From assembly GCA_036479435.1 (NCBI GenBank), contig JAZGFI010000103.1, positions 96,001 through 160,000 on the forward strand: a stretch of DNA of 64,000 bases. Direction: 5' to 3'. Each line of letters starts with the position of its first letter. Position 1 is the stretch's first letter. Made by a program: the position numbers and the translations under genes. Shown here in pieces: positions 42,093 through 47,992 of this stretch. The notes beneath the pieces were generated by a model. The model had not been told where the DNA came from. It did no database searches and worked only from the letters and a program-made list of their open reading frames with translations. This DNA comes from Planctomycetota bacterium (GTDB lineage Bacteria > Planctomycetota > GCA-002687715 > DRQF01).

Positions 42093-43046
42093 TCAGCCGG
42101 TGACGATGCGGTGCCTTGAGACTTCGCCTCGGCAGAAGCTCCGCAGGGGAAGGCCGCTGAAGCCAGTGCCTCGCGAGGTGTAGCCCACCATGCCGTCGAG
42201 TTGCCAATGGTCTCGAATCTGGGCGCGAGGGCTGCGGCAGTTTTTGAGCAGAGGAAATCCACCGGGCAAACAGACCTGGCCGCCGTGGGTGTGGCCGCAA
42301 AGGTAAAGATCAACTCCCTGAGCCGCGGCTTCGAAGGCTAGCTCGGGACTGTGCGCGAGAAGGATGCGGGGGATCTCGACGGGCGCCGCGGCCAAGGCCG
42401 TCTCCAAATCGTCGGTGCCGAACCAGTGGGGGTCATCAACACCGGCTAACCAGAATTGGCCACTGTCGTGGGTGATCAGTTCGCCTTCGTTGAGCAGGAC
42501 GCGGACGCCGAGCTCCTCAAGAGGCAGCACGATGTCGAGCGGATCGTGATTGCCGAGAACGGCGTAGCATCCAATTTTGGGTTGCAGCGCAGCCACGACG
42601 ATCGCCAGATTCTCGACGGCGGCATCAATTGATCCCTTAACGTCGAAGCGAAAATCCCCGGTCATGGCCACGAGGTCGTAGCTCCCGGCCCAGGGGCGCA
42701 GCACACTCGCGAGTCGTTCTCCTTGACCCGGCCAAGCATCAATGTGCAAATCGGACAGGTGGAGAACGCTCAGATTGCAGAGACTCTCAGCCCGCGCGCC
42801 CACTGTTAGCACACGGTCTCGAAACTCAAGACTCAGCGCGCGGTCGCAAAGCCAAGGCAAAAGCCCCACAAGCCCCAACAGATGGCTTGCTCCGTGGAAA
42901 ATCGGCTCGAGCTGCTGTAAGGGGAATCGAAACCTCGCCGCACCCGGGATTTCGCCGCGCTCACGTTGACGCCGGAGAACCGCCAGATCTGGCCCTAATC
43001 TCTGCTCGACGGAATTCGGGCGCAAATCAGTGATCTGTGCCCTCAT
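42093..43046 (-). CDS. Calcineurin-like metallophosphoesterase (YkuE-like)
   Basis: SDLH, TGD, GNHD, H-S-P and GHTHGGQ motifs. Start set at ATG 43046; the ORF's upstream extension overlaps the next gene. Confidence 0.88.
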   Translation of the reverse strand: MRAQITDLRPNSVEQRLGPDLAVLRRQRERGEIPGAARFRFPLQQLEPIFHGASHLLGLVGLLPWLCDRALSLEFRDRVLTVGARAESLCNLSVLHLSDLHIDAWPGQGERLASVLRPWAGSYDLVAMTGDFRFDVKGSIDAAVENLAIVVAALQPKIGCYAVLGNHDPLDIVLPLEELGVRVLLNEGELITHDSGQFWLAGVDDPHWFGTDDLETALAAAPVEIPRILLAHSPELAFEAAAQGVDLYLCGHTHGGQVCLPGGFPLLKNCRSPRAQIRDHWQLDGMVGYTSRGTGFSGLPLRSFCRGEVSRHRIVTG

Positions 43047-43301
43047 AGGCCCCGGCGTGACGATCTGCGGCAAGTGTGCATCCTCCCACCCCCTATCGAC
43101 TTCCGCTAATTTTCGCTTGACCGTTCGGTCGAAGAAGGCAATGGCCGCAGCGCTGGGAAAATAACCAGCAAGAAATGGCCCCTTCGGGGGCCGTAACGGT
43201 CTATGCTGGGGGCGATCCCAATTGGGTTCCATCTGCCGATCCTTCGGCGGAAGGAGCTTGAGATCTACACGTGTGATTTTTTTACTAAAGGGAGACTGCG
43301 C

Positions 43302-44492
43302 ATGAAGATATTCAGCGCTTCGCTCCTGGTTGCTTTGACCTACTTGATGCTCAGTCCTTTTGCTCTCGGCGACGACGACGATGCCAAGGGTGAAACGATC
43401 AAGCTCAAGTTCAAAGCGGTCCAGAAGTGGAACATCGTCCTTCCGAATGAAGAGTTCACCAAAGCTGACGGGAAAATCGCGATTCCCCACGCCAATGGTG
43501 ACGGCTTCGTTACGGAGTTGGACGGCATGTCCCTCGCTATCGACAGCAATGGCGATGGCAAAGTGGACACGAAAGCTAAAGGAGTCGGAGGCTTTGCCAC
43601 CCTAAAGGGCAAAAACGCCAACGGCGCCAAATTTAGGTATGCCATCCGTCTCGTCAACAACGGTGGTTGGCAATACGCCACCAGCGGTACGATGAACGGA
43701 AAACTCGGCGGCCAGGCCATTCGCCTGATCGACCAGAACAACAACGGCATCTACAACGAGTACGGCAAAGACGCGATGGTCATCGGCAAGAGCAAGACCG
43801 CTAGCTTCTTGTCCAAGGTCGTCAGCGTCAAAGGCAAGCTCTTCAACATTGAAGTGTCGGCCGATGGTCGCCAAATCACGGCGACGTCCTTCACCGGCGA
43901 AACCGGCACGATGAACCTCGCCAAGAATTTCGAAAGCAAGGGCGCCAAGCTTGTTGCTGCCGTAGTGAAAAGCGATGACGGTGAGATCTCTTTCAACCTC
44001 GCAGGCGCCCAAAAGGGACTTCTCGTCCCCGCCGGTAGCTACGAGCTTGTGAGTGGACTCATTGCCAAGGGTCGCGAGTCGGCGAAAGTCAAAGGCGGCG
44101 ACCGCAGCATGAAAGTGACGGCGGACGGCAACTTTGAACTTACTTGGGGCGGACCTCTTCGCGCCGAGTTTGAGTACGACATGAACGGTACTGAGGTCAC
44201 CCTCAGTCCTGAGAAAGTCTGGTACTACGGCCAAGCTGGCGAAGAGTACTACGACTGGATTCCGAAATCCGTGTCGCCGAAGTTCACTATCCGCGATGCT
44301 ATGTCGAAGCGCGAAATCTCTGATGCGCGCTTCGGAGGCTCATGATGAGGAGCTCTAACCCCGGTCACGGTTCGTGTACCGAAAAAAGAGATCACCGTCA
44401 GCATGAAGCAGGAACGCAAGATCTTCGGTGGCATCACCGGAGCGCTCAAGGGCTCTAAGCCTCAGGGTGGTGTGACTCAGTCCACCAACTAA
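43302..44492 (+). CDS. Secreted hypothetical protein, probable selenoprotein with two adjacent in-frame UGA codons (FGGS-U-U-GA), 396 aa if both are read through
   Basis: AAGGGAG RBS, ATG at 43302, signal peptide, DxxGDG-type motifs. TGA at 44343-44345 and TGA at 44346-44348 are followed by 47 sense codons to TAA at 44490-44492, a SECIS-like hairpin and a terminator after the TAA. The coding status of 43302-44342 is secure; the readthrough is inferred. Confidence 0.75.
44357..44372 (+). promoter_or_regulatory. Putative bacterial SECIS element
   Basis: AA-CC(bulge)-CCG-[GUCA]-CGG-UU. The stem begins 11 nt after the first UGA and the apical loop starts with GU. Confidence 0.6.
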
Positions 44493-44517: not shown

Positions 44518-44553
44518 AGTGGCCTGAAACCTGGTTTCAGGCCACTCTTTTTT
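44518..44553 (+). terminator. Rho-independent terminator
   Basis: Perfect 13-bp stem AGTGGCCTGAAAC-ctg-GTTTCAGGCCACT followed by cTTTTTT. Confidence 0.88.
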
Positions 44554-44659
44554 GCCCCGTCGGGAAGACTTTTCCAGATCGGGCGTAGCTTGTGAATAAC
44601 CGTGACCACTTGGGGTCGGATCGGTTCTCTTCGTATTCCGACACCATGAGGTACCTGCC

Positions 44660-47600
44660 TTGTTGTTTCATCGCCTTGGACTCACCGGCTTCGTCTTCAC
44701 CGTCCTATCTCTTGTTGGAGGCGCAGCCCTTGTGGCCCAGGTCCCCGAGGGCGCAACCGCGATTCAAATGGTGTCGGATCCGGCCCTGAGTCCGGACGGC
44801 GAGCTTTTGGCCTTTTCGTGGCGCGGTGATGTCTGGCTGGTCGACTCCGCAGGAGGCAGAGCCCGCCCCTTGACCCGGCACCCTGCCCGCGACCGATTCC
44901 CGGTCTTTTCTCCCGACGGCCGCCGCGTGGCTTTTACCACGACGCGGGACGGCAAGCGGCTGCTGATGAGTCTCACCATCGAAGGTGGCGAGCCGAAAAT
45001 CCACGGTAGCCATTCCGAAGGCTACCGACCGATGGCTTGGCGAAGCGACGGAATCTTGACGCAATCGCGAAGGGACCATTTTTGGCGGCACGCAGACCGC
45101 GCCATCTTGCGCCCTCTCGATCCCAAGCGGGCTGAGTCGAGCATTGTTGATGCCAACGTCGAGCGACCGGACTTGTCCGCGGACGGGCGTTTTTTGCTTT
45201 ATCAGCGCGAAGGCACCAAGACCTGGCGAAGAGGCTATCGCGGGCCGCAAGAAGCACAAATCTGGCTCTATGATCGTGAAAAGGGCGGCCACCGCTTACT
45301 GCACTCCAAAGAAGGCGGAAGTCGCTACGCGCGATGGATCACCGGCAGTGTGCGCTACGTCTACGCTTCGCGAGCATCGGGCACTTTCAACTTGGTTTCC
45401 ATCGACCTTGAATCAGGCGAAAAGAAAACACTGACAGCTTTCGAAGACGACGGGACGATGTTCATTGCCGTCGCCGCCGACGGTTCCAAGATCGTTTTCC
45501 GCCGTGGCTTCGACCTCTACTCCTTGAATCCCAACCGGGCTAGCGCCGAAAAGCTCGTCGTCTACACCAACGACGATACCGCCCTCTTGGACGAAATGAG
45601 AAAAGTCCTCGACCGAGCCAGTGCTGTCAGTTTTTCCAAAGACGCGCGCGAGATGGCCTTCGTCTCTGGTGGTGATCTTTGGGTCATGGATACCGTTCTC
45701 AAAGAACCGGTGCGCGTCTCAACTGAAGTTGAAGAGGAACGATCTCCCCTCTTTGTCGGCAATGACCGGCTGCTCGTCATCAGCGACCGCGACGGGCAAA
45801 CCGACATTTGGCAGCTTGAACGAAAAAACAAGACGGCACCATTTTGGCGCAACACGGAATTTTCATGGAAGCGTCTCACTGAAGACGCCGCCATCGAACG
45901 TAACCTGCGGGTCGTTCCTGGGGCTGACCGAGTCTCCTTTTTGGTGGACCGCGGCGATCTGCGTTGGATGAAGAACGACGGCAGCGAGGTCAAGACTCTG
46001 TTGCCGGCTTGGAATCAACCTCAGTACGCCTTTTCGCCCGACGGAAAATGGCTGGCGTACTCCCTGCAAGATGACAACTTCAATGCCGACATCTGGATCG
46101 TTCCGGTCGACGGTTCGCGCGAAGCCTTCAACCTGTCTTGTCATCCCGACAACGATCGCAACCCGACATGGTCGCAAGACGGCAGCATCTTGGCCTTCAG
46201 TGGCAGGCGTTGGGGCCGCGAAACAGATATTGGATACGTCTATCTGCAAAAAGAAGAGAGCGAAGAAACAACTCGAGAACGCAAGCTCGAAGAGGCGATC
46301 AAAAAGATGAAAGAGCGCGACAAGAAGAAGCAATCCAAATCGAAATCCAAAGGAAAAGGCAAGAAAGAAAAGGCCGAGGATGACGACGGCAAGCCTGATG
46401 AGACCGACGACGAAAAACCACAGGACGAAGACGACAACAGCGACAAGGAAAAGAAAAAGGACAAACCGACGCTGATTGACTTCGATGGCCTGCGGGACCG
46501 CATTCGCCGCATTTCGATCGCCAACAGTTCAGAACGAGGGCTCGTTTTCGCGCCCAAAAAGAACCGCCTTTTCTTCAACACCCGCATTAAGGGCAAGTCT
46601 GGAGTGTATTCGGTTGAGTTTCCCGACAAGCTCCAGCCCAAGTTCTTTGCCGAATCCATGCCGCGCGCTGCGCGCGTTCACGCCGGACCGAAACTCTTCG
46701 CTGGCTTGCTAGCTGGCGTCCCCGGTACGCTCGACCTAAAGGGCAAAAAGAAGACCTTCGCCTTTAAGGTCAAACAGAACTATCCCGTTGGTCCCTGGTC
46801 GAAAGCGGTTTTTGAACAGGCCTGGGCCGCGATGAAGGTCGGTTTTTACGATGGCCGTTTTGGCAACAAGGATTGGGACGCCATTCGAGTGAAGTACGGC
46901 GCGATGGCCGAGCGATGCCTCGACGTCGCCACGCTTTCCGAAGTCTGCAACATGATGTTGGGCGAACTCAACGGATCACACCTCGGTTTTTCGATGCGAA
47001 CGCTGCAACCGGCCTTCGAAGCCAAGGCGGCTTGGACGGATCGCACCGGGCACTTAGGCCTTTGGTTTGACAAAACGCGTCGCGGTGAAGGCTGGAAAGT
47101 CAGCCGGGTTCTTCGCGATGCTCCCGCTTGGCGTGAAAAATCTCGAATTCGGGTAGGCGACATATTGAAGTCAATCGATGGCGTGGCCCTAAGAGCAGGC
47201 TTGGATGTGTCAGTCGTGTTGACCGGACCGGCCGACCACGATTACATGATCGAGGTCGAGGATGCAGAAGGCGAGACGCGGACCGTCAGCATCCGGGCGA
47301 GTTCCTACGGCGCAATCCGGAGCCTGATGTACGAGGCCTGGTTGGAGCAAAGCCGCGAGAAGGTGAAAGAACTTTCGAACGACAAGCTCGGCTACCTCCA
47401 CATTCGCGCCATGTCGACGCCGAACTTGCTGCGCTTTGACGCCGAGCTCTACCGCATCGGCGATGGCAAAGAGGGCTTAATCATCGATGTTCGCGAAAAC
47501 GGCGGCGGCAGTATCACGGATCACTTATTGACTTGTTTGTGCCAGCCGACCCACGCGATCACCCGCCCCCGCGGTGGAGGCCTGGGCTATCCTCAAGACC

Positions 47601-47992
47601 GCCGCATCTATGCATCTTGGGACCAGCCCATCATTGTTTTGTGCAATCAAAACTCGTTCTCGAACGCGGAGATCTTCGCCCACGCCATAAAGACTCTAAA
47701 GCGCGGACGTCTGGTTGGCGTCACCACCGCGGGCGGGGTCATCTCCACCGGACGCCGCCGGCTCATGGGCGGAGCCTCCGTGCGCATGCCCTTCCGTGGC
47801 TGGTACCTGCTGGATGGCGAAGACATGGAATTAAATGGTGCCGTCCCCCACGTCGAAATGTGGCCCGAGCCCGGCGCTTGGCCCGCCGCCATCGACCGCC
47901 AACTTGAAAAAGCCATCGAACTCCTCCAAAAAGACGTCGTCACCTACCAGCAACGCCCCACTCCCAAGCTCAGAAAGTCCAGCGAGCGCTAA
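44660..47992 (+). CDS. Tricorn-protease-like S41 peptidase (PD40 beta-propellers, PDZ, S41 domain)
   Basis: Signal peptide, repeated SPDG propeller motifs, MLGELNGSH, GYLHIRAM, IIDVRENGGG, SFSNAEIF. Confidence 0.92.
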   Translation: MLFHRLGLTGFVFTVLSLVGGAALVAQVPEGATAIQMVSDPALSPDGELLAFSWRGDVWLVDSAGGRARPLTRHPARDRFPVFSPDGRRVAFTTTRDGKRLLMSLTIEGGEPKIHGSHSEGYRPMAWRSDGILTQSRRDHFWRHADRAILRPLDPKRAESSIVDANVERPDLSADGRFLLYQREGTKTWRRGYRGPQEAQIWLYDREKGGHRLLHSKEGGSRYARWITGSVRYVYASRASGTFNLVSIDLESGEKKTLTAFEDDGTMFIAVAADGSKIVFRRGFDLYSLNPNRASAEKLVVYTNDDTALLDEMRKVLDRASAVSFSKDAREMAFVSGGDLWVMDTVLKEPVRVSTEVEEERSPLFVGNDRLLVISDRDGQTDIWQLERKNKTAPFWRNTEFSWKRLTEDAAIERNLRVVPGADRVSFLVDRGDLRWMKNDGSEVKTLLPAWNQPQYAFSPDGKWLAYSLQDDNFNADIWIVPVDGSREAFNLSCHPDNDRNPTWSQDGSILAFSGRRWGRETDIGYVYLQKEESEETTRERKLEEAIKKMKERDKKKQSKSKSKGKGKKEKAEDDDGKPDETDDEKPQDEDDNSDKEKKKDKPTLIDFDGLRDRIRRISIANSSERGLVFAPKKNRLFFNTRIKGKSGVYSVEFPDKLQPKFFAESMPRAARVHAGPKLFAGLLAGVPGTLDLKGKKKTFAFKVKQNYPVGPWSKAVFEQAWAAMKVGFYDGRFGNKDWDAIRVKYGAMAERCLDVATLSEVCNMMLGELNGSHLGFSMRTLQPAFEAKAAWTDRTGHLGLWFDKTRRGEGWKVSRVLRDAPAWREKSRIRVGDILKSIDGVALRAGLDVSVVLTGPADHDYMIEVEDAEGETRTVSIRASSYGAIRSLMYEAWLEQSREKVKELSNDKLGYLHIRAMSTPNLLRFDAELYRIGDGKEGLIIDVRENGGGSITDHLLTCLCQPTHAITRPRGGGLGYPQDRRIYASWDQPIIVLCNQNSFSNAEIFAHAIKTLKRGRLVGVTTAGGVISTGRRRLMGGASVRMPFRGWYLLDGEDMELNGAVPHVEMWPEPGAWPAAIDRQLEKAIELLQKDVVTYQQRPTPKLRKSSER

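Follow-up and report, generated by a model that had tools for sequence, protein, structure and literature searches.

A coding sequence whose apparent end is formed by two consecutive in-frame TGA codons, and whose frame stays open beyond them, raises the question of whether these codons terminate translation or are read as selenocysteine (Sec), and, in the latter case, of how two neighbouring codons could be served together; bacterial Sec insertion is held to need, for every UGA, a downstream hairpin at a set distance. Such a sequence occurs in the window, the whole stretch of 64,000 nucleotides of Planctomycetota DNA that was analysed in the present work. The preliminary description of this DNA interpreted the gene as a read-through selenoprotein, and proposed looking for conservation beyond the TGA codons, for Cys at the UGA site of homologs and for the sel genes of the genome; the interpretation is supported by each computational check that had been named. 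The preliminary description contained neither a SECIS nor any recurrence of the adjacent Sec pair (UU), both of which were found here, the hairpin with covariation between its partners. Judged from sequence comparison, it is nearly certain that at least one of the two UGA codons is read as Sec, and it is likely that both are, with one SECIS serving the pair. The gene belongs to an uncatalogued family of Planctomycetota selenoproteins, and its product is most likely an exported, all-beta protein in three parts.

Positions 44331-44366 of the window read ttc gga ggc tca TGA TGA gga gct cta acc ccg gtc, and the TGA pair does lie, as had been claimed, inside a longer frame: the full coding sequence (43302..44492, forward strand) specifies 396 amino acids when both TGA codons are read as Sec, with UGA1 (44343..44345) encoding Sec348, UGA2 (44346..44348) encoding the probable Sec349, and a further 47 codons running to the true stop, TAA at 44490-44492 (tail and stop together 44349..44492). 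The start at 43302 is favoured over the longer ORF start at 43203 because a Shine-Dalgarno-like stretch read from the sequence, AAAGGGAG (43287..43294, forward strand), sits 7 nt upstream of the ATG. The protein has no Cys or Sec other than U348-U349, and its database copies are unnamed and are cut at 347 or 380 amino acids. The position given earlier for the terminator was also correct: a strong intrinsic-terminator-like hairpin of 13 pairs (44518-44546), which together with its T tract occupies 44518..44554 on the forward strand, begins 25 nt past the TAA and 169 nt past the second TGA, but with three terminator-like sites in the region versus 2.2 in shuffles this is weak evidence when taken alone. 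Sequencing error at the TGA pair was ruled out, because contigs from all four of four sequencing runs span the pair without a differing letter (these runs represent at most three samples from two studies, and one of them is possibly the source). The pattern itself is near chance in this genome, in which a second TGA follows 38 of the 1,254 TGA-ended frames of at least 300 codons; many of these 38 sites are TG-ATG start overlaps, and several have at least 40 open codons beyond them. Because the TGA-TGA pattern alone does not exceed chance, the case for read-through rests on the family.

Conservation continues past the TGA codons in all 11 genes that were found to have a UU pair. The 40 residues after UGA2 of the window match a profile built only from the tails of single-U and Cys homologs with an E-value of 6.5e-15, while 19 control read-throughs, taken from other TGA-TGA sites of this genome, match the same profile at E 1.8 or worse, so the pattern exceeds what chance produces. 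All 11 UU tails likewise match a profile made without them (E 1.6e-19 to 3.1e-6), and they are 36-55 codons long, as compared to 36-189 codons (median 41) in the single-U genes. The window gene is 43-65% identical to its relatives past the hairpin (after UGA2), versus 44-55% upstream. After the hairpin, pN is lower than pS in most pairs that involve UU genes, for example 0.13 versus 0.46 for L244 and L200, 0.21 versus 0.63 for L249 and L228, 0.12 versus 0.37 for L013 and L011, and 0.30 versus 0.76 for the window gene and L011. The tail signal is short, and it is weak in some pairs, with pN barely below pS in three of them (window gene and L010, 0.33 versus 0.35; window gene and L017, 0.36 versus 0.39; L241 and L080, 0.43 versus 0.51).

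The family to which these tails belong was delimited by profile searching, which returned 2,065 representatives at E 0.001, including 267 at E 1e-30 or better; a single-protein search of the genome contigs returned no related loci. All 40 of the non-self proteins in the first homolog search stop at the UGA column, 34 of them in Cys, and among the best 150 of the 2,065 representatives 108 end at this column (68 in Cys), 21 read through it (8 with CC and 4 with a single Cys), the remaining 21 being fragmentary or distantly related. The family has a match in 20 of the 23 genomes of the order and in 73 of the 401 genomes drawn from the phylum, and its named records belong to Planctomycetota, are labelled ‘hypothetical protein’ and are stored cut at the site. 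A census of 70 genome loci, comprising the DNA of the stronger matches with Cys or UGA at the site and excluding distant and long paralogs that lack the motif, gave CU 48, UU 5, CxxU 4, lone U 4, UC 3, lone C 3, CC 2 and CxU 1. A metagenome pattern scan gave CU 60, SU 5, TU 2, UU 2 and GU 1 among the 70 matches listed, figures which are not frequencies, since the scan selects one hairpin type; chance matches, amounting to 50 of the 120 metagenome stretches listed and 7 of 13 genome-scan stretches, were dropped on the basis of their profile score. The homologs with CC, CU and UC that the preliminary description had suggested looking for thus all occur, and together with the lone-C homologs they place the in-frame UGA in alignment with Cys, as is expected of a selenoprotein. 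No Pfam or NCBIfam 20.0 family matched the window protein below E 0.09, none matched the members P0003 and P0012 at E 1 or two CC homologs at E 0.01, and a sequence search of the PDB gave no useful match to the family.

The genome also carries the machinery that decoding as Sec would require, in that selA, selB, selC and a Sec-type selD are all present. The selA gene (E 1e-138), a tRNA-Sec that scores above the cut-off and selD lie in one cluster, selB (above the cut-off) lies on another contig, and selD has an in-frame UGA at its own catalytic position (U20). Genome-wide reassignment of UGA was rejected, because ARAGORN found no tRNA with a TCA anticodon in this genome other than tRNA-Sec and because 36 of the 70 family loci have TGA as their genuine stop. 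All 64 of the genomes picked from the family match lists have selA, versus 289 of 401 in the phylum draw, where the 64 were picked by hand and are related to each other rather than independent. The homologs with Cys at the site occur in genomes that retain selA and tRNA-Sec.

A SECIS-like hairpin lies within the coding sequence at 44362..44381 (forward strand), with a stem of 7-8 bp in which the U at 44377 is bulged; a G-C pair closes its loop, GUU at 44370-44372. UGA1 stands 18 nt before the Val codon of the hairpin, the spacing found in 48 of the 52 scorable family genes, and UGA2 stands 15 nt before it; measured to the GUU loop, the distances are 24 nt and 21 nt. The bacterial SECIS model in the available part of PMC13188914 specifies G followed by G or U at the start of a loop of 3-9 nt, located 16-37 nt from the UGA on a stem of 4-16 bp, and the hairpin of the window agrees with this model for both UGA codons. 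The inner pair of the hairpin is Watson-Crick in all 52 scorable U genes (GC 33, AT 15, TA 4), one of its partners being a synonymous third codon base, whereas a shuffle control, which ignores relatedness, gave a mean of 25.5 and a maximum of 37 of 52. The 52 are those of 65 U loci in which the peptide pattern could be placed, and six of the 13 loci dropped (L080, L097, L101, L108, L114 and L115) show the same pairing with a Gly variant. Pairing in a seven-row alignment is 100%, versus 14-55% when the rows are slid. The GU loop is lost in both CC homologs, and in one of these, L079, comparison with a CU sister of 87% identity (L072) shows TGA replaced by TGC and the loop GTG by GCG; the lone-Cys homolog L077 has an intact hairpin. 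The loop of the window, GGUUC, is unique among the 126 U genes scored. Without the UGA codons the folding energy of the hairpin is ordinary (z -0.58), and the bare consensus is unspecific, a de novo SECIS scan of the genome giving 9,200 candidates. A family-shaped scan gave at least 178 rows, most of them spurious.

The UU pair is not confined to the window. Eleven distinct UU genes were found in the family: the window gene and its paralog L054, the paralogs L013 and L047 of genome G002, L080, L241, L249, two metagenome genes, and both paralogs of the cultured Rohdeia mirabilis Pla163. These fall into two registers. In seven of them UGA2 stands 18 nt from the Val or Tyr codon of the hairpin, as if CU had become UU, and in the other four (the window gene, L013, L241 and L247) UGA2 stands at 15 nt and UGA1 at 18 nt; both spacings are present in R. 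mirabilis, in which L244 has 21/18 nt and L247 has 18/15 nt, and which also has selA and tRNA-Sec. Among genes with a single UGA, one has it at 15 nt (L075) and one at 21 nt (L095). In gap-free register, the UGA2 column of the window gene is the one in which the UC homologs L101 and L103 have their Cys, and the UU of this gene can be read as UC-type or can equally be read as a CU-type UU that has lost one codon before the hairpin. When the nearest relatives are aligned without gaps, UGA2 falls on a nearly invariant Gly, such that a single change, GGA to TGA, would produce it; the branch of the window gene is long (0.46-0.51), and the change can be dated neither on it nor from the tail. In quick trees, the second of which was built without the motif and the tail, the UU label changes six times, with at least five and four changes forced by well-supported branches. 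A single UU clade is rejected (p-AU 9e-6), as is a clade of the window gene and L013 (0.003), and in two UU groups the pair has been retained across deep branches. The alignments and trees thus indicate that UU arose or spread several times within the family. Over the UU site, 15 bases are identical between the two paralogs of G002; local gene conversion or patch transfer may explain part of the spread, and the number of UU origins may therefore be lower.

Adjacent UGA codons also occur in this genome outside the family. An unrelated exported protein (G000:C55:7257-8111; L260:1758-2609), for which there was no family match above cut-off, has UU directly after its signal peptide, and the 20 loci of its own family have CU in 9, UU in 5, lone U in 4, UC in 1 and CxxU in 1. 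A lipoprotein encoded on the minus strand of G000:C75 has the candidate UU motif A-A-P-U-U-A-I-P-D-C-K near its C-terminus.

The 396-residue product is predicted to be exported and to consist almost wholly of beta structure. Residues 1-23 (43302..43370) form a probable cleavable signal peptide without a lipobox, as judged by inspection of the sequence, by similar hydrophobic leaders in homologs and by low pLDDT. An N-terminal all-beta region follows at about residues 29-200 (43386..43901; alignments, and a model with pLDDT 96), and contains two DxNxDG-like loops, at 81-89 and 144-157, with D144, G149 and D157 invariant; the Dx[DN]xDG motif presumably marks possible Ca2+ sites in these loops, and an EF-hand match to the protein is sub-threshold (E 0.094). 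The best structural match of this region has Z 5.0 (rmsd 2.8, 80 residues aligned), and Foldseek gave none at E 0.001. The middle of the model is a beta-sandwich at about residues 198-284 (43893..44153), which matches 4ecn_A with Z 6.1 (rmsd 2.8, 85 aligned), a common arrangement, and the C-terminal part is an Ig/FN3-like domain at about residues 285-383 (44154..44450), with many FN3 and Ig matches at Z 4.3-5.4 (rmsd about 2.5-3.5, 74-92 aligned), again a common arrangement and below the level of kinship. In the AlphaFold model, for which U was folded as C, the mean pLDDT is 92.5 and values exceed 90 across the UU site. The UU loop comes after the strand at 338-343, and the strands at 355-358, 364-372 and 376-382 are encoded past the UGA codons. 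The model is all-beta with no helix of four or more residues, and does not have a thioredoxin fold. With the whole protein as query, no fold search found a clear global match (the best Foldseek hit had E 8.7e-5 with TM 0.14, the best VIA hit Z 6.1), a result which does not show that the fold is new.

A tricorn-like S41 protease is encoded downstream of the window gene (44660..47992, forward strand), and a homologous gene also comes after the relatives L010 and L015, although it follows only some of the close relatives. One CU member, L075:1030-2613 (G145), is fused to a C-terminal TlpA/AhpC-TSA domain with the sequence WCGPC (E 4e-24); this is the only such fusion among the 70 loci. In genomes G269, G178 and G398, which account for all three such loci fetched, a family gene lies directly before selD/selA or selA/selB. 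The paralog L054 (G000:C119; L250:5901-8240 onward), which has the motif S-U-U-G, heads an operon that encodes a 780-residue secreted protein, a 504-residue membrane protein, a MoxR AAA protein, a DUF58 protein and two large proteins, and that has the same order in five other genomes. The 780-residue protein is encoded beside 31 family loci (two of which are duplicates or were not counted apart), and its C-terminus shows a weak likeness, below cut-off and without UxxC, to Omp28-related selenoproteins.

After export, the C-terminal Ig-like domain would carry the Sec-Sec pair in a Gly-rich loop. The conserved reactive residue would be one of the Sec residues, and the partner, a Cys or Sec found at -3, -2, -1 or +1 or missing altogether, would have a resolving or protecting role; members with a lone U show that the family can do without a vicinal pair. 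The site would most likely cycle between the selenol and vicinal diselenide states in extracytoplasmic thiol-disulfide chemistry, with re-reduction by a TlpA-type thioredoxin. Given that both UGA codons are read as Sec, this role as an exposed redox loop, to which the variation of the motif and the TlpA fusion point, is on balance the favoured one. It is possible, if less probable, that the loop is instead a ligand for soft metals (Cu, Hg or As), a surface carrier or store of selenium, or a sensor, rather than a redox catalyst. This would accord with the lack of a thioredoxin fold around the motif, with the position of the gene directly before sel genes in three distant genomes, with the distant members that join an anti-sigma-like N-terminus to the domain with a lone U, and with the operon headed by the paralog, MoxR/DUF58 operons being of a type that assists metal or cofactor loading. 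CU motifs occur, moreover, in organometallic systems such as SaoL and HgcA (PMC13188914, Table 1, in the part available). A fixed metal site is nevertheless a poor fit to a partner Cys that roams from -3 to +1 and is absent in some members, two Se atoms per 40 kDa would make a poor store, and the TlpA fusion points to reduction by thioredoxin.

Reading of both UGA codons from one hairpin can be accommodated within the known insertion system. SelB carrying Sec-tRNA binds the GU loop of the SECIS hairpin. In the window gene, this complex would serve UGA1 at the usual distance of the family; the ribosome would then advance one step, and a second SelB complex would reload on the same hairpin to serve UGA2, which is one codon nearer. 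That the hairpin tolerates one codon either way is suggested by the spacings of 15, 18 and 21 nt in single-UGA members. The yield of the Sec-Sec product would probably be low and selenium-dependent, and chains that end at either UGA would lack three strands of the last domain, and would probably fail to fold and be unstable.

The two codons are at unequal distances from the hairpin (18 and 15 nt), and the spacing is strictly 18 nt in 48 of 52 genes. It could be that Sec is inserted at only one of them, leaky suppression or a near-cognate tRNA (Trp or Cys) dealing with the other, which would leave one Se per full-length chain. In E. coli, UGA codons placed at least two codons away from the fdhF hairpin were reportedly suppressed without selenium in the work of Chen, Fang and Inouye in 1993, which counts in favour of this explanation. 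It is nonetheless improbable: members with a single UGA have it at 15 nt (L075) and at 21 nt (L095), homologs have Cys, and never Trp, opposite both positions (CC, CU and UC), and if TGC or TGG were the better codon there would be little reason for TGA to have been kept across deep UU clades.

A similarly low probability attaches to the explanation that UGA2 is a stop, either as a recent nonsense change in a decaying gene or as the end of a shortened protein that terminates in Sec (…GGS-U). The single change GGA to TGA at a nearly invariant Gly would be sufficient for this, and the long, undatable branch of the window gene (0.46-0.51) and its unique loop variant also count in favour. One nonsense change leaves unexplained, however, that adjacent codons have changed together with it (C to S, G to A and F to L), and the 15-nt register is found again in L013, L241 and L247, with tails intact in all 11 UU genes. 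Termination at UGA2 would, according to the model, delete three strands of the last domain, and no variant is seen in the contigs of the four runs. An ordinary double stop, translational coupling through TG-ATG to a small ORF, or genome-wide UGA reassignment is highly improbable, for while TGA-TGA ends 38 of 1,254 long frames here and the ATG within TGATGA opens a frame of 37 codons, the ATG frame varies from 12 to 50 codons and is unconserved over the 11 UU genes, conservation following the gene's own frame, and the coupled ORF and the plain double stop were rejected on that account.

The insertion system proposed for the window gene is thus of the known SelB/SECIS kind, while its apparent use on adjacent UGA codons was not found described for a natural bacterial gene. 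An engineered tandem UGA (positions 0 and -1) in E. coli fdhF is said to have been decoded in a selC- and selenium-dependent manner at about one sixth of the normal level, again by Chen, Fang and Inouye in 1993; that construct was an artificial reporter, and its register is like the 18/21 nt of the paralog and not the 15/18 nt of the window. Mammalian thioredoxin reductase bears a C-terminal Gly-Cys-Sec-Gly arm, which is likewise a vicinal chalcogen pair in a flexible Gly-rich segment, and most members of the window family are similarly G-C-U-G. The window protein differs in having an internal Ig-like loop and Sec-Sec rather than Cys-Sec, in lacking a flavin domain and in being exported.

Among the 119 prokaryotic selenoprotein families of PMC13188914, Table 1, as far as the table was available, none has a UU motif among those listed and nothing could be matched to the window family; no natural bacterial UU was found in the literature covered, which included the available parts of PMC13326102 (BSepDB, whose family list was possibly missed) and PMC12013277 (deep-Sep). 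SaoL (NF040728), SaoB, SaoC, HgcA, KCU-star and MbdU resemble the window family in having a UGA after a Cys, a SECIS within the coding sequence and CC homologs, and proteins of the SaoL type with CU or UC are likewise cut at the aligned Cys in databases (bioRxiv 2022.07.06.499078 and PMC13188914, in the parts available). The window family differs from these in having no NCBIfam or Pfam sequence match, an exported all-beta scaffold and adjacent UU. Consecutive Sec-Sec has been predicted in the algal protein PDI_e (GUGUU), which its authors call the first such case in the available text of PMC7539508, but according to the same source PDI_e is eukaryotic, has a thioredoxin-like fold and relies on a 3'-UTR SECIS without a spacing constraint, whereas in the window family one bacterial in-frame hairpin must serve two neighbouring codons. 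Two close Sec residues per bacterial chain also occur in the UxxU and UxxxxU proteins (Prx-like, NF041115, FmdB family and TsoB) described in the accessible part of PMC13188914, in which, unlike the adjacent pair of the window family, they lie 3-5 codons apart and in other folds.

Taken together, these observations permit a broader reading, which is put forward tentatively and as a little short of an even chance: that the decoding of tandem UGA codons from a single in-frame SECIS, at either of two spacings, is routine in Planctomycetota; that Cys-Sec has repeatedly become Sec-Sec in several unrelated exported proteins (the window family, the family of the C55 protein and the lipoprotein); and that a natural vicinal diselenide is carried on a non-thioredoxin beta scaffold in an undescribed surface system for redox or selenium handling, which one paralog would link to a MoxR/DUF58 operon and to an Omp28-like partner without a UxxC of its own. 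Because natural genes with adjacent UGA codons in two spacings are found in a cultured strain whose genome is closed, it becomes directly testable whether one hairpin can direct two successive Sec insertions, and at what cost, which has a bearing on the mechanism of recoding and on the engineering of multi-Sec proteins. Gene callers are cutting a widespread family, of which 267 representatives match at E 1e-30 or better, in mid-domain, and its natural series of CC, CU, UC, UU, CxU, CxxU and lone U on one scaffold offers a comparison of sulfur and selenium chemistry.

Several further observations were made in the course of the analysis. The occurrence of selA in 289 of the 401 Planctomycetota genomes drawn stands beside the fact that the phylum is not mentioned in the available part of the selenoprotein review PMC13188914. 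Where a family gene lies directly upstream of sel genes, as in L257, L258 and L259, the adjacent selD of L257 and L259 has a catalytic Cys and not Sec. In the window itself, a divergent gene for a calcineurin-like metallophosphoesterase lies on the minus strand at 42093-43196, and is not conserved as a neighbour in the clusters of genes around family loci that were compared. G000:C27 (L251:3244-5547) and many relatives are paralogs of 700-900 residues that share the beta domains but have an N-terminal half that is helical, and have no Cys/Sec motif and no Pfam match. Genome G038 has seven distant paralogs (L031, L055-L059), two of which have a UGA in the loop (C-F-S-U and G-U-C) and the rest none. 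The N-terminus is anti-sigma-like in the distant members L102, L113 and P0175, whose Gly-rich loop is expanded and contains a lone in-frame UGA (G-A-G-U-G), which makes this a possible selenocysteine sensor domain.
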